A DNA stretch of 64,000 bases from an uncultured virus (IMG/VR IMGVR_UViG_3300033143_005075) (IMGVR_UViG_3300033143_005075:1-64000), one strand, 5' to 3'; numbered from the stretch's first letter, positions 12,795 to 60,078 are shown. The notes: a model not told the origin generated them from the letters alone. Numbers and translations: made by a program.

Positions 12795-13217
12795 ATGATT
12801 AAGGTAACAGCTGAAGGTTACGTTACTGACAACGTGAGGATCAACGAAGCCGGTGATACTGGTCGCTTCGTGAACTTTGGTTTGTCCGTGCGGAGCCAGA
12901 AGCCCAAAGCAGAACGGAAGGATCGACAGTTTATTAATGTCGAGATCTTCGTTCGCAAAGATGGAAAGCTCGCCGACTACATCAAAGGTGGGAAGCGCAT
13001 CATGTTTGTAAATGGTGGGCTGTACTATGACGACGTCGAGAAGGAAGGAAAATCTACTCGATACTGGAAAGTTCGTGTCAATGCTAATGACATCACCCTG
13101 TTGGGCGATGGTCCTGCAAAGGGCAGTGGCGAAGCCAAACCAGCATCCGATGGCGCGAAGACAGAGCAGGCTGCACCTGCAAGTGACGAAAAAGGTGGGA
13201 GTGACTGGGACGGATAG
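12795..13217 (+). CDS. ssb: single-stranded DNA-binding protein
   Basis: OB-fold-like N-terminus, flexible linker and acidic tail (SDWDG); AGGAGG RBS. Confidence 0.75.
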   Translation: MIKVTAEGYVTDNVRINEAGDTGRFVNFGLSVRSQKPKAERKDRQFINVEIFVRKDGKLADYIKGGKRIMFVNGGLYYDDVEKEGKSTRYWKVRVNANDITLLGDGPAKGSGEAKPASDGAKTEQAAPASDEKGGSDWDG

Positions 13218-13244
13218 TCCCAGTTCTCCTACTAGGAGGACACG

Positions 13245-14924
13245 ATGGCTCTAAAGAAAGTCGACGAATTCCTACGGTTACTTGACGTAGGAGCACCGCT
13301 AATACATATCTCAGACAGGGATGTTCCAACCCTGCTAGCAGTAGTGGCGGGGCATAAAGCAAGGGGAGGTAACTCCGGAGGAACTTATTTCTTTGTGAAC
13401 GGAGCAGGATTATTCCTGTACGATCTTCCTCTAAGTGGTGGAGCACCTACAGTATCACAGGTAACGATTAAGTTATCCATGGGAAATCAACCAATCACAG
13501 ATGCAGAAACTCTGCTATCTTTGGTGATTGGAGTATCACCTCATGCACAGATACTAAGACCAGGAAGCAATGTATTCCTGTGCCTAATGGAAAGAGATTC
13601 ATTTGATAGATCACCTCCATTGGTAAGTATGTGTAAGTCACTGTATGTTGGTGCCGATAAGCTGTTCAAGCTAGCACCGCCTCTAGGTGGAAAGAAGAAA
13701 CAAGGAACTTCGACACAGCACTCCGAAGCAATGCAGGAGTACAAACCGAAATCACAGGTACCGACGAGCAGTACAATAATTCTGCTTGGTGAAACACTAG
13801 AACCACCTCCGCAGATAGCTTCACATTGCTTTGTCTTTGGAGCCATGAAGACCGAACTTCCATCGTGGATTACATCGGAGAAGAAGGACAAGAAGGGTAA
13901 CCTAATCTATCCGAAACAACTATGGGAACACCTTGGTGGTCTAATCCAGAATGAGTGTACCATGGTAGCAGCTGCTGCTCACAAAGGTGCTGATGATCTA
14001 GCAGGAAAGAAACGGATTGACGCAATGGTCCAGGCAGCAACGTGGATCAGAAGCGGTATCTTTAGAAGCAATGCAGTTGTGAAAGAACTCAGCGAGACCA
14101 TTCGCATGGAAGATGTTGGTGGATACGAAGTAGTAAAGAAGTTCATCAACAGACGCAAATCCATCGTTGAGAAATGGGAGAAAGCCAAAGCAAAGAATGT
14201 TCAGATGAAAGGAATATTCTTGGTTGGTATCCCAGGATCTGGTAAGACTATCTTACTAGAAGCAATGGGTAAAGAATGGGGTTTGCCTTCATATGAACTG
14301 AACCTGAACCTGGCACTCGGTCGATATGTCGGCGAGAGTGAGAGCAGGTTACAGGCTGGGTTTGACACCTTGAGGAAACTAGCACCTTGTTTCTGTCTCA
14401 TTGATGAGGTAGACAAGGTTCTTGCCGGGGTCGGTGAGGGGCAGACCGCAGGAAGCGATGTTCCACTGAGGATCTTTGGAATGCTCCTACGCGCAATGAA
14501 CGAGAGCAATGACATCATCTTTGGTGTCAGTGCGAACCGCGTGAAATCTTTACCCGGAGAGTTCATGAGGAAAGGAAGATTCGATAAGATGTTCTTCATG
14601 GATGTTCCAGGTCCAACTGAGAGAGCAGAAATCTTCGCAATCCACATGAAGAAACGAGGTGAAGATGCGCTTAAGCTTCCCAAGGAAGACAAGGAAAAGA
14701 TCATCAGCGAAATGGAGGACTTTACCGGCGCGGAAATCGAATCTATTGTGAATGAAGCAGTCGCAACCAGCGTAATTGAGGACGAAGAACTGAATACCAG
14801 CATGATTATGGCACAAATTCGTGAGTGTAAAGGGATTGACTACGACAAGAAAGAGATCGTTGACCTACGAAACTGGGCGAAGAAACATGCTGAATTCGCA
14901 TCAATCACGCGACAGAAAAGTTAA
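13245..14924 (+). CDS. AAA+ ATPase, Ycf46/SpoVK-like
   Basis: GIPGSGKT, YVGESE, LIDEVDK, RKGRFD, FTGAEIE. Confidence 0.88.
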   Translation: MALKKVDEFLRLLDVGAPLIHISDRDVPTLLAVVAGHKARGGNSGGTYFFVNGAGLFLYDLPLSGGAPTVSQVTIKLSMGNQPITDAETLLSLVIGVSPHAQILRPGSNVFLCLMERDSFDRSPPLVSMCKSLYVGADKLFKLAPPLGGKKKQGTSTQHSEAMQEYKPKSQVPTSSTIILLGETLEPPPQIASHCFVFGAMKTELPSWITSEKKDKKGNLIYPKQLWEHLGGLIQNECTMVAAAAHKGADDLAGKKRIDAMVQAATWIRSGIFRSNAVVKELSETIRMEDVGGYEVVKKFINRRKSIVEKWEKAKAKNVQMKGIFLVGIPGSGKTILLEAMGKEWGLPSYELNLNLALGRYVGESESRLQAGFDTLRKLAPCFCLIDEVDKVLAGVGEGQTAGSDVPLRIFGMLLRAMNESNDIIFGVSANRVKSLPGEFMRKGRFDKMFFMDVPGPTERAEIFAIHMKKRGEDALKLPKEDKEKIISEMEDFTGAEIESIVNEAVATSVIEDEELNTSMIMAQIRECKGIDYDKKEIVDLRNWAKKHAEFASITRQKS

Positions 14925-29654: not shown

Positions 29655-29684
29655 CAATAACATCCCACAAGTGAGGTGTACACT

Positions 29685-30404
29685 ATGCGTAAGCGAATCA
29701 AGTATACTCTGATTGCTCTTGTCGCCCTGACCTTCGTGCTCATTACCGAGAGCAACCTCCATAGCGGTAGCGACAGTTTTATGAGTATGATCAGAAATGA
29801 GATGAAGATGTATTCTCCCAAGACACTTAAGCTCGAGGGAAGAATCATGAAATCGATAGCAAGTGCTACAAGGAAGCAAATCATTGAGCCTCCACTAGTC
29901 ACTGCTATCATGTCAAATGAAAGTGCTTACAAGCAATATGCATACAGTCCAAAGAAAGCCAGGGGACTGATGCAGCTCGTAAGACTCGGAGCCAAGCAGG
30001 CTGAATGGGAAACTGGAAGAAGCTACTTTGACCCAGTAAAGAATACCAATGGTAAAATCATTGGCTGGGAGCTCAACAAATGGAAAGTATATAACATAGA
30101 GAATAACATTCATGGTGGGGTTGGCCTTCTTGAATGGCTAGCTAAAAAGTATCCCATGTACTACGAAGATGGTACAATGGACGAAGACAACCTTAAGGTA
30201 GTCATCGAACTATACAATGTAGGATGGGGAAACTACCACTATTATAATGTAAGAAACGCTAAGTATGTTCGTGATGTTATGCGTATCTATAAGAGACATA
30301 GGAAAGCATTCTATGATTCATATGGTACCGATGAAGGATTCAACAAGTACTGTAAGAACCAATACAAGAAGAAAAGAATCAGCAAAAGACGCAGTAGAAA
30401 GTAA
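29685..30404 (+). CDS. lytic transglycosylase (SLT) with N-terminal signal/TM
   Basis: AIMSNES, ARGLMQL, YNVG. Confidence 0.85.
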   Translation: MRKRIKYTLIALVALTFVLITESNLHSGSDSFMSMIRNEMKMYSPKTLKLEGRIMKSIASATRKQIIEPPLVTAIMSNESAYKQYAYSPKKARGLMQLVRLGAKQAEWETGRSYFDPVKNTNGKIIGWELNKWKVYNIENNIHGGVGLLEWLAKKYPMYYEDGTMDEDNLKVVIELYNVGWGNYHYYNVRNAKYVRDVMRIYKRHRKAFYDSYGTDEGFNKYCKNQYKKKRISKRRSRK

Positions 30405-30420
30405 CTGCTGCACAAAATAT

Positions 30421-30772
30421 GGAGTAGTATCTCAGCGGAAGAGAACTTTTCCTCCCGCCTCGATGGTGTATGACAAGGAAGGTCAGGAATATCCCACTTC
30501 CACGGAATTATAGTGGCTTCGGCCCGTGTTTGGTCTATGACCTGCGCCCGTATAAGGAAGATGGCGAAAGCCGAGGGATCTCCGTGATCGTCCTAGATCC
30601 AAGCGATTCTGAGAAGGATTAGAGGACTGTCTGGCTTACAGTCGGACGGCGCTCTCTATGGGGTCTCAGGGGTAGCTATTGGGTTAGGCGCCACTCAGGG
30701 TGAGTACGCTTAGAGTACCCTTGCGGGAACCAGCGAAAAGTCGCCGTGGGTTCGAGTCCCACCTACTCCACC
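30421..30772 (+). ncRNA. tRNA-framed large structured RNA (interrupted tRNA or tmRNA-like)
   Basis: Acceptor GGAGTAG (30421) / CTACTCC-A-CC (30763-30772), D arm TCTC/GAGA, stem ACTTTTC/GAAAAGT, T arm GTGGG-TTCGAGT-CCCAC; ~280 nt hairpin-rich insert replaces the anticodon loop. Confidence 0.75.
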
Positions 30773-30800
30773 TAAAACAAACCCTAATAAGGAGATAAAT

Positions 30801-31970
30801 ATGAAGATTAACGGAGGAGAACTTGTTGAGCATTTCTCCAGGCTAAGATCTCTTACAGCACCATCCATTGATTCAAAACGGGTGGTGTTGTTTTCTAAAG
30901 GAGCAAGCCTGGTATCTGTTGTCTCATCAGCATCCGCACGCGCGATTACAGTGATGCAAATGCCAGTCGAAGAGGGAAAGGATCCAGATACATTTGGTCC
31001 TATTGCTATTGACTTCCAAAGATTCCTGAATGTCCTTATGACATGTAGGGAAGGCAATGTTGAAATGCGAATTGGCAAAAACATACAGATTAGAGGACCA
31101 GGTGGACGGTTCAGCCTGTCAGCAAATGAGTTAGACATGGAACAAATGAAACCCATGTTAGTTGACGCAGCGAAGGACACCTATGAAGATATCTTGGTTA
31201 TGAGTCCTAACACGCTCTCTGTATTCACAGAGATAATCTCCAGCTTATCTATCGGAGACGTCAAGGGTGCTACCTTCAAAGTGATTATTCATACAGAACC
31301 TGGGCAAGCCAATATTGCTATTGGTTGTAACTCTGTGATCGCAACCCTTGATATCAAGAACAAGGGCATAACAAGTACTATGGATGTAGAGACAAACTCT
31401 AAATCTCTAATGCAAGCAGTCAGAGCCATAGGACAAAGCACGAAGAAAGCACCACTTAAGATCAGCATCGGAGACAAGATCGTCAGACTCGAGAACGACT
31501 CATGTAAAATAATCATGTCATACTCAAAGACAGAGGGCGGCACTGGTATTGCGCAGATCCGTAAGCTACATGGTCTTATGAAAACTGTCGCTAGTACCAT
31601 GGAGGTTCCAGTCAAGAAACTCAGAGATGCACTCTCTACAGCTACCATGATGGCTGGTCCTGGACTACAACTCCCAATGGCATTTAAATCTTCGGGCGTG
31701 CACCTTGGAGTTCAAACATCATCTGGTAGCTTCAGTACAACAGTGAACGGTTCTTCATATAAACTTACGGGTAAAGAGACAGATGTTAAGTGTGTAGCAG
31801 GAATGTTCTCGAGGATGCTAAAATGTGTCGGTGATGCAGCCGAAGAAGACAAGGTCGGTATCCGAGTCTACCAAGTAAACCAGAAGAACTTCTATGTTAA
31901 CATGGCTGGTGGAGTAAAGGGAGAAGACTCCAGGATCTCATACGCCTTCAAGATGGTAAAGAATAAATGA
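30801..31970 (+). CDS. DNA polymerase sliding clamp, DnaN (beta)-like
   Basis: 389 aa with repeated beta-alpha-beta pattern typical of the three-domain clamp; replication context; no diagnostic catalytic motif exists. Confidence 0.55.
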   Translation: MKINGGELVEHFSRLRSLTAPSIDSKRVVLFSKGASLVSVVSSASARAITVMQMPVEEGKDPDTFGPIAIDFQRFLNVLMTCREGNVEMRIGKNIQIRGPGGRFSLSANELDMEQMKPMLVDAAKDTYEDILVMSPNTLSVFTEIISSLSIGDVKGATFKVIIHTEPGQANIAIGCNSVIATLDIKNKGITSTMDVETNSKSLMQAVRAIGQSTKKAPLKISIGDKIVRLENDSCKIIMSYSKTEGGTGIAQIRKLHGLMKTVASTMEVPVKKLRDALSTATMMAGPGLQLPMAFKSSGVHLGVQTSSGSFSTTVNGSSYKLTGKETDVKCVAGMFSRMLKCVGDAAEEDKVGIRVYQVNQKNFYVNMAGGVKGEDSRISYAFKMVKNK

Positions 31971-40287: not shown

Positions 40288-42408
40288 ATGAGCGCACAGC
40301 AAACTAAGAAGGACTATGCCCCAAGACGAGTGAGACTACATAGCGGTAAGATCGCCAAGTATAAAGAAGACCATATCAGAAACAAGATTCTAAAACTTGC
40401 TGCATCCTGCAAGGTAAAGGGACCAAAGACATTCTCGAAAAATATAGCTGGTTTAGTAACACAAACACTCACAAAAGACAAGAAGGAAACACCCAGTGGT
40501 AATCAGATAAGCGATACCATTGAAGAAGTTCTGTTAAATTCAGAACACAAGAACGTAGCAAAGAAATTCATTCTCGAGAGAGCAGAAGAGAAGAGACTGA
40601 AGAAGATCGACAATCTGTTCTCTGAAACTATGCAAGTCATGGATGATTATCTAGGCGCAAAGGACTGGCGCGTCAAAGAGAATTCAAACATGACGTATTC
40701 ACTTCAAGGATTAAACAACCATCTATCGAGCAGCACTACTGCTAAATACTGGTTGGATAGAATTTATCCTTCTGAGATAGCAGATGCACATAAGTTTGGG
40801 TATATACATATTCATGATCTTGGATCACTTGCGTGTTATTGTTGCGGTTGGGACTTGGAAGATCTTCTAATGACTGGTATCACAGGTGTTCCACAGAAGA
40901 CAATTTCTGGACCAGCAACTCATTTCTCATCTATCCTTGGTCAAATAATGAATTTCCTATACATGCTCCAAGGAGAAATTGCAGGAGCTGTTGCGCTTTC
41001 GAACTTTGATACACTATTAGCTCCATTCATCAAGAAGGATGGACTAAACCAGAAGCAAGTAAAGCAAGGCATTCAAGAGTTCGTATACAATATGAACTCG
41101 CCACTGAGAACTGGGTTTCAACAAACGTTCTCGAACATCACGATGGACATGGTGCCATCATCACTGTATGCCGATCGACCATGTATCATTGGTGGCAAAC
41201 AGATGGATTTCACATATAAAGAATGTGCGAAAGAGATGGAGATGATCAATATCGCTTTCGCAGAAACAATGATGGAGGGTGACTCAAGGGGTGCTATTCA
41301 CTCCTTCCCGATCCCAACTTATAATATTACAGATGAATTCATCTGGGATTCTCCCGCGGCAAAAAAGGTATGGGAAATGACAGCAAAACTAGGCGTACCA
41401 TACTTTGCTAATATGGTAAACTCAGGTATAAAACCTGAAGATATTCGCAGCATGTGTTGTCGAATTTCTATCGATAATCGTGAACTCAGGAAGAGACTTG
41501 GTGGTATCTTTGCATCTGCTCCATTAACAGGAAGTGTCGGAGTATGCACACTTAACCTACCAAGACTCGCTTATATATCAAGTGATAAAGAAGAGTTCTT
41601 TGAAAACGTTGAAGCATATATGGAAGTTGCAAGAGATAGTCTAGAGATTAAACGCAAGATCTTAGAAGATCTAATGGATAGAGAACTCTATCCATATTCT
41701 AAGTTCTATCTCAGATCAATTAAACAACGGAGTGGTGCATATTATACAAACCATTTCTCAACAGTTGGTCTAGTAGGTATGCATGAAGCATGTCTCAATC
41801 TCCTGGGAGATGGGATACAAACCAAAGCCGGAAAGGCATTAGCTATAGAGACACTCACGTTCATGAAGAAAATCACACAAGAATTCCAAGTCACTACCGG
41901 AAATCTATATAATCTAGAAGCAACACCAGCAGAAGGCGCATGTTACAGACTAGCAAAAGCAGATCAGAAATCGTTTGGTGCCGAAGCTGCTCATGCAGGA
42001 GACAAGATTGTATATTATACTAATTCAACACATCTACCTGTAGGACACACAGATGATCTGTTTAAGGCACTAGATCATCAAGATGAGTTACAGTGTCTTT
42101 ACACCGGTGGTACTGTGCTTCATTCATTCCTAGGTGAAAGTGCGCCAGACCCAGAAGCATTAGCAGGTCTCATCAAGAAGATCACTTCGAAGTACAAGTT
42201 ACCATATATTTCAATCACACCAACGTTTACGATCTGCGAAGAACATGGATATCTAAAAGGCGAACATCATAAATGTCCACACGAAGGATGTATCGCTATA
42301 GTGAATGTCTATTCAAGAGTGGTTGGTTATTACAGACCGGTCAGTAGCTGGAATGACGGAAAGAAAAGCGAGTATGGAGACAGAAGAACATACTGCCTAC
42401 CAGCATAA
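40288..42408 (+). CDS. nrdD: anaerobic (class III) ribonucleoside-triphosphate reductase with ATP-cone
   Basis: HIHDL, YCCG, SMCCR, EATPAEG, YYTNS, YTGGT, C-terminal Zn site and glycyl-radical motif RVVGY. Confidence 0.96.
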   Translation: MSAQQTKKDYAPRRVRLHSGKIAKYKEDHIRNKILKLAASCKVKGPKTFSKNIAGLVTQTLTKDKKETPSGNQISDTIEEVLLNSEHKNVAKKFILERAEEKRLKKIDNLFSETMQVMDDYLGAKDWRVKENSNMTYSLQGLNNHLSSSTTAKYWLDRIYPSEIADAHKFGYIHIHDLGSLACYCCGWDLEDLLMTGITGVPQKTISGPATHFSSILGQIMNFLYMLQGEIAGAVALSNFDTLLAPFIKKDGLNQKQVKQGIQEFVYNMNSPLRTGFQQTFSNITMDMVPSSLYADRPCIIGGKQMDFTYKECAKEMEMINIAFAETMMEGDSRGAIHSFPIPTYNITDEFIWDSPAAKKVWEMTAKLGVPYFANMVNSGIKPEDIRSMCCRISIDNRELRKRLGGIFASAPLTGSVGVCTLNLPRLAYISSDKEEFFENVEAYMEVARDSLEIKRKILEDLMDRELYPYSKFYLRSIKQRSGAYYTNHFSTVGLVGMHEACLNLLGDGIQTKAGKALAIETLTFMKKITQEFQVTTGNLYNLEATPAEGACYRLAKADQKSFGAEAAHAGDKIVYYTNSTHLPVGHTDDLFKALDHQDELQCLYTGGTVLHSFLGESAPDPEALAGLIKKITSKYKLPYISITPTFTICEEHGYLKGEHHKCPHEGCIAIVNVYSRVVGYYRPVSSWNDGKKSEYGDRRTYCLPA

Positions 42409-42423
42409 TTGAAGGAGTAATCC

Positions 42424-43137
42424 ATGGTAGGAGCAATAACAAACCTCTCTCTTGTTGATTACCCTAGCTTACCAGCTATGGTGATCTTCATGAAGGGATG
42501 CAACCTAAAATGTACATACTGTCACAACATGGCACTCGCAAGAATGCCACAAGTTGTGGAATCAATAGAAATGAGAAGAGTAATACACCGGATGAGAAAG
42601 AGCAAAGATCTTATCGATGCAGTTGTGATAACCGGGGGTGAACCATTACACGGTGAACCCCCATGCTCATCATTCAATGAGATTCAAACCATTGCATTGG
42701 AGGCACACAAACTTGGCTTAATGGTTAAGCTAGATACAAATGGTACATATGCTGACAGATTATCATATGTGATAACCAGACTTCACATCGATTATGTCGC
42801 AATGGATATCAAGACATATCCACAAGCAGGACAAAATCGAAAAGGATATGAAGCCAAACACTGGAAGCAAATCATATCTAGCTTAGATGTAATGGAAAAC
42901 TATCGTACATCGTTAGATTTCCAGTACGAGATCAGAACAACATGTCATCCTCTTTATGTGAACGAGAGGATCATCAGAGCAATTGCAAGACTAATACCAG
43001 ACGAAGTCCCTTACTATCTACAGCCATATCAGCAAGTAGAGGGCGATAATATTCAATCAACACCAGAGGGTGCACTGCTCCCATTTCTGGAGATAGCAAG
43101 TAGTGTTCATGCGGACACTCATATTAGAGGAGGATAA
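42424..43137 (+). CDS. nrdG: anaerobic RNR activase (radical SAM)
   Basis: GCNLKCTYCHN, TGGEP, KLDTNG; adjacent to nrdD. Confidence 0.93.
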   Translation: MVGAITNLSLVDYPSLPAMVIFMKGCNLKCTYCHNMALARMPQVVESIEMRRVIHRMRKSKDLIDAVVITGGEPLHGEPPCSSFNEIQTIALEAHKLGLMVKLDTNGTYADRLSYVITRLHIDYVAMDIKTYPQAGQNRKGYEAKHWKQIISSLDVMENYRTSLDFQYEIRTTCHPLYVNERIIRAIARLIPDEVPYYLQPYQQVEGDNIQSTPEGALLPFLEIASSVHADTHIRGG

Positions 43138-58169: not shown

Positions 58170-60078
58170 ATTTAAATATTAGATTGCCAAACCAGTTAAA
58201 CCACCAAACACGAAACCAATTTCTTCCTTTACTTTCAACATGAATTGTCTCTCTTGTTGTATTAGCTATTGCTTTTGGTGCATCCGTTACTGTATCAACA
58301 GCTACTCCTGTTATAGTAGCAGCTGCACCGGCTACAGCGGTTTGTACCTGCTGTCGAGTTAAGGGTTGGTTAGGGCCGTTACCTTCAGCTTCTGTCATGA
58401 ATGTATGCAAAGCTGTTACACCTGTTACATTCATGACACTTGGTGTGTGTCCTCTTTGTCCTATTTCTATTGTGACACCAGCTGCTGCTGGATTTGTTGT
58501 TGACCTCTTATGTTGTGAGTAATAATCTGTGAGAGTAATGGTCTTAAGTAATGTCTCAAGACACTCTCGGAATTTCTCATCTAGATAATAGTATTCATCA
58601 TCAATCTTATAGAGCCGTCGATGAGGCGTTTCAACGCCATCATCGGCTTCACTTAATGAAGGAACAGTAGGAACTGTGGGTCTATCTCCTGTCTTTTGTA
58701 GAATTGCATTACCACTTGATCCGTATCTTGTGGATACATCATTCTCTAGAATAGATACATCTTCGTTTGCTTTAGCAAATCGTAGATGGAGTTGGTGATT
58801 ATTCTTAGTGAAATGTTCACTACTAAATATATGTTTGCGGCTACTACCACTTACTCCGAAATCAACTGTCTTACCTGGTATACGATCAGCTGATACGAAT
58901 ACATGCGAATCAAATATATTAAGAGCTTGCAGAAATTCATTGATAGAGTTTACATTGAGACAATTTCTAAACATATCAACGCGATCTGGCGCAGTCATTG
59001 CTGCCATTGCTTGAACCATTTTTAAATCATTATTTCCTGAGTTGCACTTCGTATAGTAATATTTTAGTGCTGCTACTGAAATCATGATTTGATCAAATTG
59101 TGAAAGCTGAGTAAGTATAACTTTCTCCAGAAACGCATTTGCAACTGTTGGTGTGCTTGCTTCATTTGCTATAGCTATAGCTTCTTCTTTCTCGTTTGAA
59201 TCATTCTTATCTAATCCTAGTCCTGGTGGATCCGAAGTAGTACTATCACTCACTGCATTGTTATATATGTCTTCCCATCGTGTAACCTGACTCTTTATTA
59301 GATGTTCTCTAGCTGATTGATATGTTGAATCTCCATAAGTGAATTGTGGGCCAAATGATAAATGCGGACTCTGAGAATCAATTGCTCTTGCAACAAATCC
59401 TTTGATCTCGAACAATAGAGGATTACCTGTTATTCCGAGGGTTAGTCTTCTGCTATCTCCTGGCCTATATAGATAAGGTGCAAATCTACTATTACTATTT
59501 TCAGAAAAGAACCTTTTGTTATATCTATCAATTAAAATACTAAGGCCATTAAAGAAATCATCGAAACTGAGCTGACAAATACCAAATCTAGAACTTATAG
59601 TAGAGATTGAGGGAACGCGAGATGCTTTCGTCATATCTAGTAACGATCTGGTAGCAAAGAATGCTTTAATAAATCTCCAGTCTGGAATTTCCCGTTCAGA
59701 ACCAATGGAGCTTCCACCACCAACCGACATACTAAAATTATCCGGGTTCTCAGAATGAAAGTGGTTCTTAAATAGAGCTAGTGTTGCATACTTAAATACC
59801 CAATCGTATTTGTCTGCTTCTGTACCAGTTAGTTTATCTAGGTTTGTTAGCACCCAGTTGCCCGCGGTTGAGTTTTTATCTGTGGTTTCTCCTGCTTCTG
59901 AAGCAGACTTCGGTTTCAGTTTTCTATATTCAGCATTCACCACTCCTGGATCGATTTCAGAGTTTGCCCAAGTTGGTATGCCGAATAGAGAGCCATTCAG
60001 ATATATTCCATTACGAGGATTTAGTGATTTGATACTAAAGAGATGATGATATGAGTCCCGTATTGTTGATATTGCCAT
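58132..60078 (-). CDS. hypothetical protein, possibly virion-associated
   Basis: 648 aa ORF, last gene of the - strand run. Confidence 0.6.
   Translation of the reverse strand: MAISTIRDSYHHLFSIKSLNPRNGIYLNGSLFGIPTWANSEIDPGVVNAEYRKLKPKSASEAGETTDKNSTAGNWVLTNLDKLTGTEADKYDWVFKYATLALFKNHFHSENPDNFSMSVGGGSSIGSEREIPDWRFIKAFFATRSLLDMTKASRVPSISTISSRFGICQLSFDDFFNGLSILIDRYNKRFFSENSNSRFAPYLYRPGDSRRLTLGITGNPLLFEIKGFVARAIDSQSPHLSFGPQFTYGDSTYQSAREHLIKSQVTRWEDIYNNAVSDSTTSDPPGLGLDKNDSNEKEEAIAIANEASTPTVANAFLEKVILTQLSQFDQIMISVAALKYYYTKCNSGNNDLKMVQAMAAMTAPDRVDMFRNCLNVNSINEFLQALNIFDSHVFVSADRIPGKTVDFGVSGSSRKHIFSSEHFTKNNHQLHLRFAKANEDVSILENDVSTRYGSSGNAILQKTGDRPTVPTVPSLSEADDGVETPHRRLYKIDDEYYYLDEKFRECLETLLKTITLTDYYSQHKRSTTNPAAAGVTIEIGQRGHTPSVMNVTGVTALHTFMTEAEGNGPNQPLTRQQVQTAVAGAAATITGVAVDTVTDAPKAIANTTRETIHVESKGRNWFRVWWFNWFGNLIFKSNVSSKPRIRCV

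Follow-up and report, generated by a model that had tools for sequence, protein, structure and literature searches.

The 64,000-nucleotide (nt) stretch of uncultured virus DNA analysed here (IMG/VR IMGVR_UViG_3300033143_005075, positions 1-64000; hereafter the window) carries at 30421-30772 on its + strand a genuine transfer RNA (tRNA)-derived RNA gene, which belongs to a 234-kb phage and holds a large insert that fits no known family. The window is part of a 120-kb IMG/VR record, and the same locus was found in a 234,008-bp record that has direct terminal repeats and is rated 100% complete; the 441 bases compared (30380-30820) are identical. Coordinates below are those of the window unless the 234-kb record is named. 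As a tentative first choice, I read the element as an unspliced, stable RNA of ~350 nt that is scaffolded on a tRNA body, has an architecture like that of transfer-messenger RNA (tmRNA) and plays no part in decoding.

The tRNA body has its canonical parts, namely a 7-bp acceptor, a D arm with G18 G19, a T loop of the TTCRANY type and a discriminator. The 5' acceptor strand GGAGTAG (30421-30427, +; positions 1-7, with A at position 3) pairs 7/7 in Watson-Crick fashion with CTACTCC at 30763-30769, giving A3-U70, and is drawn in this way in the ARAGORN cloverleaf. T8 and A9 follow it directly, and after them comes a D arm of 4 bp with a 7-nt loop (TCTC/AGCGGAA/GAGA, 30430-30444, +; A14, G18 G19 and A21), read from the sequence and by ARAGORN, with an A next to it. 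The anticodon stem pairs CTTTTC (30446-30451, +) with GAAAAG (30735-30740) and thus has 6 bp rather than the standard 5, ARAGORN drawing 5 bp plus an extra C and G; it encloses 283 nt (30452-30734) that start with C 30452. Its 3' strand and a 5-nt variable loop, TCGCC (together 30735-30745, +; sequence and ARAGORN), lead to the T arm GTGGG/TTCGAGT/CCCAC (30746-30762, +), which appears in the sequence, in the ARAGORN cloverleaf and in the Rfam tmRNA alignment, and then to the 3' acceptor strand with discriminator A73 (30770) and a following CC (30763-30772, +). Since the base after 30772 is T, the CCA end is incompletely encoded. The stem pairs (7 + 4 + 6 + 5) are all Watson-Crick and, read against standard tRNA numbering, the elbow nucleotides are complete (U8, A14, G15/C48, G18 G19, A21, G53-C61, U54 U55 C56 and A58).

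A contiguous 5-bp anticodon stem with a 7-nt loop is absent here, and neither ARAGORN at its default nor Rfam at its gathering thresholds makes a tRNA call at this position. With introns allowed at default stringency, ARAGORN returned tRNA-Gly(CCC) at 30421-30772 with a 276-nt intron at 37/38, the same excision as one of two considered in an earlier sequence-only reading of this DNA. Intron mode called nothing when the 234-kb genome was block-shuffled 10 times (2.34 Mb in all); applied to 88 other loci, it produced a single unrelated intron call, and its remaining six calls were copies of this locus. The ARAGORN call by itself nevertheless counts for little, because a tRNA was still called in 155 of 3000 constructs in which the real 3' part was kept and the upstream 400 nt were shuffled. 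As the program is permissive once it is given the real T arm and 3' acceptor strand, a strict in-register test was applied, demanding 7/7 acceptor pairs, a D stem of 4 bp whose 7-11-nt loop contains GG, and 5 bp in the anticodon stem. This test was passed by only 2 of 200,000 shuffles, from which it follows that the tRNA frame is real and not a chance match.

The insert as ARAGORN delimits it (30458-30733, +; 276 nt) has a G+C content of 54.3%, against 41.5% for the genome. A continuation helix, TCCCGC (30453-30458, +) paired with GCGGGA (30723-30728), prolongs the anticodon stem and was retained in the constrained fold; a 6-nt bulge, ACCAGC (30729-30734, +), lies between the two helices and opposite C 30452. 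Within the insert, the sequence contains a UUCG hairpin, GGCTTCGGCC (30515-30524, +), a GAAA hairpin, GGCGAAAGCC (30563-30572, +), and two further hairpins, GGATCT/AGATCC (30576-30600, +) and GACTGT/ACAGTC (30625-30643, +). The sequence-only reading had described these tRNA arms, helices and hairpins, and every one of them was found where it had been placed. A 50-amino-acid (aa) open reading frame (ORF) at 30470-30622 also lies inside the insert; no ribosome-binding site was seen for it, and a small protein as the product of the insert was set aside.

The + strand of the insert folds at -97.3 kcal/mol (z -1.75, 12 of 200 shuffles equal or better) and the - strand at -71.5 kcal/mol (z -0.24), which is 26 kcal/mol weaker; the whole element reaches z -2.47, a level attained by 2 of 100 shuffles. 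The G+C content and this strand asymmetry fit a + strand RNA, and are not strong evidence alone. Ensemble energies of the full-length RNA were -140.2 kcal/mol when folded freely, -136.8 kcal/mol with the outer tRNA frame enforced, and -127.9 kcal/mol with an alternative inner frame (described below) enforced. The outer frame is therefore 3.4 kcal/mol from the free ensemble and 9 kcal/mol better than the inner one. In an Rfam search of 501 nt (30350-30850, E<=10), which is the scope of the Rfam results for this locus, the insert matched no family apart from a local match to tmRNA. A self-BLAST of the 234-kb genome showed no second copy of the insert and no repeat signature.

The local tmRNA match (RF00023) covers 30669-30773 and scores 33.3 bits against a gathering cut-off of 47, and at gathering thresholds the search is empty. 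Only an inner GGGGTAG, the T arm and the 3' side of the acceptor are aligned, 328 of the 374 model positions being skipped over 57 nt. No tag-like frame was present in a three-frame translation, and ARAGORN in tmRNA mode responded only at a lowered threshold, with the remark 'Tag not identified'. SmpB (PF01668) had no match in the complete phage genome, and would normally come from the host. A standard tmRNA was rejected on these grounds (outer A3-U70, a D stem present, no tag frame, and 33.3 bits below the cut-off), and the sequence-only reading was right that the A3-U70 pair and the D stem set the element apart from tmRNA. A permuted tmRNA was likewise rejected, as its 19-bit match extends into the next gene and its ribosome-binding site.

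Relatives of the element were sought in several collections. A blastn search against GenBank phages gave nothing at E 1e-5, and relaxing the limit to E 10 brought up other tRNA genes that share no more than the final 35-45 nt. The large collections were probed with exact words: in viral contigs a 5' 20-mer, an insert 18-mer and an insert 19-mer matched this phage only, and a 3' 25-mer matched 4 loci, one of them in this phage. A 3' 22-mer matched 12 loci in metagenome contigs, none with the insert, and one locus in genome contigs. A degenerate pattern for the 5' half found 8 loci in viral contigs (this phage, one ordinary tRNA and 6 coding matches). Following synteny, the clamp-like gene next to the element had no relatives, and the best match of the family B DNA polymerase was 62% identical on a 3.9-kb contig, with viral contigs at 27% or less. 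A literature search found no phage tRNA body with an insert of such size outside group I introns and tmRNA, which is not proof of absence in print.

Two metagenome contigs contain an intact tRNA-Tyr(GUA) whose acceptor and T arm are those of the element and whose 5' half resembles that of the element, which hints that the frame of the element descended from a tRNA-Tyr-like gene. These tRNA-Tyr genes (L092:450-545, - strand, and L093:375-473, + strand) are diverged and have an extra GGAGTAG 4-11 nt upstream of the real one. A contig of an uncultured Dokdonia metagenome-assembled genome (L117, ~450-569, - strand) has a tRNA frame in which the acceptor carries G3-U70 and the T arm is that of the element; ARAGORN calls it only when introns are allowed, as tRNA-Ile(UAU) with a 40-nt anticodon-loop insert. 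A 73-nt RNA with GGGGTAG was found at 3 viral loci (contigs L002, L003 and L005) and at 9 of the 12 metagenome loci (L089, L090 and L094-L100). It has G3-U70 and a TTTGCAA loop, scores 29 bits with the Rfam tmRNA model and is missed by ARAGORN, and it resembles either a tRNA-Ala(UGC) in reduced form or a relative of tmRNA that consists of the tRNA-like domain (TLD) only.

A decoding role for the element is not supported, because of the 6-bp anticodon stem with its second helix, the mismatched acceptor, the rarity of GGG codons and the 31 tRNAs that the phage already has. These 31 ordinary tRNA genes cover all 20 amino acids; in the 234-kb genome some of them form an array (64-71 kb) and others are scattered over 5-33 kb. 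The phage's tRNA-Gly(GCC) and tRNA-Gly(UCC) have the acceptors GCGGGAG or GCGGATA and U73, against GGAGTAG and A73 in the element. By the identity rules of glycyl- and tryptophanyl-tRNA synthetase, and given GGA with A73 here against GCG with U73 in the phage's own tRNA-Gly, a splice product read as 'tRNA-Gly(CCC)' would have an acceptor of the wrong identity. Of the glycine codons GGG is used least, making up 9.8% of them (175 ORFs, 63,453 codons).

The phage evidently uses the tRNA shape repeatedly outside decoding. A 112-nt look-alike (70306-70417 of the 234-kb record, +; Rfam tRNA 34.1 bits, cut-off 29) has an intact acceptor and T arm with 49 nt in place of an anticodon arm, and is not called by ARAGORN at default. 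Three consecutive RNAs with an acceptor and T arm share one 500-nt gap that heads the tRNA array (64289-64790 of the 234-kb record, +); they measure 284 nt, ~85 nt and ~120 nt and match no Rfam family at E<=10. Rfam places none of the phage's look-alikes in a family besides tRNA. The 284-nt element (64289-64572) is called by ARAGORN as tRNA-Thr(GGU) with a 199-nt intron and a poor cloverleaf, and its local alignment score with the element at 30421-30772 is 22, within the range of shuffles (18.3 +/- 2.2, maximum 26). In addition, orphan T-arm/acceptor minihelices of ~45-100 nt occur in intergenic sequence of the 234-kb record (T arms at 59962, 31008, 188715 and 16964, all -), of which the one at 59962 is 59 nt long and has a perfect 7-bp acceptor; these may be processing marks for ribonuclease (RNase) P and RNase Z. 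The sequence-only reading had missed these look-alikes, and their recurrence moved the odds towards a non-decoding role for the element.

The reading that I tentatively put first is, then, that of an unspliced, non-decoding RNA held in a tRNA scaffold. The element would be transcribed together with its + strand neighbours as part of a polycistronic RNA, RNase P would cut at 30421, 3' processing would follow A73, and host enzymes would complete the CCA end. No CCA-adding enzyme was found in the phage genome. The tRNA body would hold the RNA in shape, and the inserted module of ~265-280 nt would be its working part. The anticodon loop is replaced by a helix that leads into this folded module, which is the layout of tmRNA without the features that define it.

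This reading has to be weighed against the possibility, doubtful but not slight, that the locus is an intron-containing tRNA gene from which the 276-nt insert is removed, the joined exons then having the loop CUCCCGC (anticodon CCC) or CUCCAGC (CCA). Removal might be performed by a divergent group I ribozyme that Rfam misses, by a ribozyme of a new class, or by a protein endonuclease, with RtcB or the RNA ligase of the phage then joining the ends. Several points weigh against an unspliced RNA. The folding z-scores (-2.47 for the element and -1.75 for the insert) are modest, and no homologue of the insert was found in the collections searched, so no base pair within it is backed by covariation. 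Where the anticodon loop of a bacterial or phage tRNA carries an additional 200-350 nt, a group I intron is a priori the most frequent case. Excision leaves a loop of the regular 7 nt, in which C32, U33 and a purine at position 37 are restored; the phage has Gly tRNAs with GCC and UCC and none with CCC, so that CCC would add the missing C34 isoacceptor, and U34 and C34 tRNAs are both present for Lys, Gln, Thr, Leu and Arg. RtcB or the RNA ligase could seal the exons, and the Rfam group I model is not fully sensitive: a model seeded with bacterial sequences found 20.2% more tRNA introns than the Rfam model, according to the available part of the report (10.1101/2020.01.27.920355). For this last reason a slim chance is kept for a divergent group I intron. 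The ARAGORN call, the canonical tRNA body and an insert size that matches bacterial tRNA group I introns also favour splicing, as do the 'enigmatic' tRNA introns reported from huge phages (PMC6784885). Speaking against it, no group I intron, group II intron or small self-cleaving ribozyme was matched, and the group I model RF00028 had no match in the 120-kb record. Eight excisions that restore a 7-nt loop were enumerated by hand, and none combines U or C at -1 with G at omega; starting with the insert directly after the stem, their -1/omega pairs are C/C, C/A, U/A, C/C, C/C, C/A, G/G and C/C, so that the sole excision with omega-G has G(-1), and U(-1) goes with A(omega). Group I and group II introns and the small self-cleaving ribozymes were rejected accordingly, for lack of a usable Rfam match and, for group I, because of unsuitable boundaries. 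A bulge-helix-bulge intron was rejected as well: the canonical form of 3 nt, 4 bp and 3 nt is absent, the helix being 6 bp long and its 3' strand bulging by 6 nt against 1 nt on the other side, with both irregularities on a single strand in the constrained fold, and the splicing endonuclease EndA (Pfam tRNA_int_endo, PF01974) had no match in the complete phage genome. That the sequence-only reading could find no group I core, group II ends or canonical bulge-helix-bulge was borne out by Rfam and by the geometry. The 6-bp anticodon stem continues into a second 6-bp helix without presenting splice sites. The spliced Gly(CCC) or Trp(CCA) products proposed in that reading are formally possible and fit poorly with A73 and with G1-C72, G2-C71 and A3-U70, a frame that is wrong for bacterial Gly and Trp; the phage's own tRNA-Gly have U73. 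RtcB (E 1.5e-66, between tRNA-Gln and tRNA-Arg genes), the RNA ligase (PF09414 with a PHA02142 OB domain) and the RlaP nucleotidyltransferase lie in that order at 12872-14023, 41512-42609 and 221057-222031 of the 234-kb record, all on the - strand. Together they make up an RNA repair set, which allows the sealing of exons without arguing for splicing: for jumbo phages, the usual interpretation of RtcB, Rnl and RlaP is that they repair tRNAs cut by host nucleases (PMC7824862), and they are for this reason not specific evidence of splicing.

Two other explanations were considered, and neither is likely. The less probable of them takes the product to be an inner 105-nt RNA (30669-30773), an alanine-type tRNA-like domain without a tag frame that would resemble the RNA of mycobacteriophage DS6A, which may titrate SmpB or alanyl-tRNA synthetase; the 248 nt before it, with the tRNA 5' half among them, would then serve as a leader or an alternative-pairing switch. 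It starts from an inner heptamer, GGGGTAG (30669-30675, +), which was overlooked in the sequence-only reading and is an alternative partner of the 3' acceptor strand, giving G3-U70 of the alanine type; with 30676-30773 it forms a potential tRNA-like domain. The Rfam tmRNA model selects this 5' strand (33.3 bits), the acceptor matches what I take to be the alanine identity set (G1-C72, G2-C71, G3-U70, G4-C69 and A73), and the 73-nt RNA described above has the same 25-nt 3' end together with GGGGTAG in other phage tRNA arrays. Phage forms that consist of the TLD only are also on record (PMC4131195, PMC11915505). Yet a heptamer pairing 7/7 with CTACTCC arises by chance in 30,437 of 200,000 shuffles (15%) of the upstream 400 nt, no D-arm partner stands in register with it, and the UCGAC that typically follows GG in tmRNA is missing from the Rfam alignment. 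For the full-length RNA the inner pairing is ~9 kcal/mol costlier than the outer frame, a competing partner of the heptamer lies inside the insert (30667-30674 with 30716-30723), the phage genome has no SmpB match, and the statistically solid outer 5' half would be left unexplained. Improbable too, if somewhat less so, is a dead gene, that is, a former tRNA, its acceptor and T arm like those of phage tRNA-Tyr genes elsewhere, split by foreign DNA so that nothing functional is made. Such a history would suit a singleton whose insert has no relative in the searched collections, a G+C content unlike that of the genome and a folding z of only -1.75, and likewise a location in the replication module, far from the tRNA arrays, and the two metagenome contigs in which a tRNA-Tyr(GUA) that shares the acceptor and T arm is intact. 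It is at odds with two perfect tRNA halves that retain the elbow nucleotides, with an extra 6-bp helix that closes the insert in register with the anticodon stem, with the strong strand asymmetry in folding, and with the lack of a further copy or repeat signature in the genome; in addition, phages as a rule would rarely retain 400 nt of junk between co-directional genes. The sequence-only reading had offered an intron, a tmRNA-like RNA and a tRNA-scaffolded non-coding RNA as options, and is supported in part; the strong match to a standard tmRNA or group I model that it named as refuting it was not obtained.

The locus is a 396-nt gap (30405-30800) flanked by two + strand genes. Upstream lies an SLT lytic transglycosylase gene (29676-30404, +; Pfam SLT, E 1.9e-13) and downstream a 389-aa gene (30801-31970, +), the predicted structure of which resembles beta sliding clamps in an ESM Atlas structure search (template-modelling score, TM, 0.80); the clamp-like protein has no sequence relative among 5.8 billion proteins and belongs to no Pfam or PHROG family. 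The wider neighbourhood includes a family B DNA polymerase, a VWA protein (upstream), a GH108 lysozyme and a helicase, and the peptidoglycan hydrolases next to the element indicate a bacterial host. In the 234-kb genome the element is solitary at 210.5 kb, within the replication module and far from the tRNA arrays. Since no sigma-70-like promoter and no terminator-like site was found on the + strand beside the element, co-transcription with the + strand neighbours is plausible. A replication origin was rejected, with the extremes of cumulative GC skew at ~58 and 180 kb and the locus at ~210.5 kb of the 234-kb genome, and so was a Ro/Y-RNA pair, an idea suggested by the upstream VWA gene, as the genome has no TROVE domain; YrlA had no usable Rfam match. 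The Pfam scan of the phage covered 192 of 232 ORFs of at least 90 aa, the 40 left out being in the structural region. Separately, a tRNA-Met(CAT) at 2048-2120 (+; 64.9 bits) is the sole standard tRNA of the window, and a 1250-aa helicase-like ORF (193444-197193 of the 234-kb record, -) has an intein splicing domain (PF14890, E 8.5e-11).

Self-splicing is, to my knowledge, the only accepted route of tRNA intron removal in bacteria and their viruses, and I know of no large RNA built on a tRNA body other than tmRNA. A clean tRNA frame with a 276-nt module fits neither a self-splicing intron nor tmRNA. On a possible, though by no means probable, reading the insert is a functional RNA of an undescribed class carried on a complete tRNA body. 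As a new kind of intron it would need neither a group I core nor a splicing endonuclease for its removal; an unrecognised ribozyme, for instance, could excise it, and RtcB or the RNA ligase could seal the exons. As a tmRNA-like mimic it would reach the tRNA-handling machinery without alanine identity, and the phage's other look-alikes would be part of the same strategy. The weight of the case is limited in that it is a single sequence without relatives. It is nevertheless a clonable test case for the use of the tRNA shape by huge phages (in processing, stability, decoys or a new splicing route), and its value is increased by its context, a complete phage genome with RNA-sealing enzymes and other tRNA mimics.

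Among known systems, group I introns share with the element the anticodon-loop site, the size range and G+C-rich hairpins with stable tetraloops. In contrast to them, the element has no match to RF00028 (E<=10), its helix list contains no P3/P7 pseudoknot arrangement, and no pair of boundaries that brings back a 7-nt loop combines U or C at -1 with omega-G. The tRNA genes of Lak megaphages contain 'enigmatic' introns which, in the available text of Devoto et al. (2019, PMC6784885), are conserved between related genomes, and one of which may encode a tRNA. As in Lak, the element is an anticodon-loop insert in a tRNA gene of a very large phage that Rfam leaves unclassified and that is found only with introns allowed, and in both cases no removal mechanism is known in bacteria; it differs in that the 276-nt insert has no relatives and the exon identity does not match the anticodon. 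Mycobacteriophage DS6A has a TLD-only relative of tmRNA (PMC4131195, PMC11915505, as far as the available parts of these sources go). The inner reading of the element would be similar to it in combining an alanine-type acceptor with a T arm, without a coding part and in a phage, and different in being 105 nt long rather than ~65-75, in sitting within a larger tRNA frame and in having a statistically insecure 5' strand, the two being likened by description alone. Finally, tmRNA itself is found in some large phages, according to the available parts of PMC7162821 and PMC4131195. The element departs from it in its outer acceptor (A3-U70 against G3-U70 in tmRNA), its full D stem, the lack of a usual tag frame and an interior that does not align, and resembles it in its length of ~350 nt, in a tRNA-like top formed from the 5' and 3' ends with a T arm, and in a long helix in the position of the anticodon stem that opens into a large structured domain.

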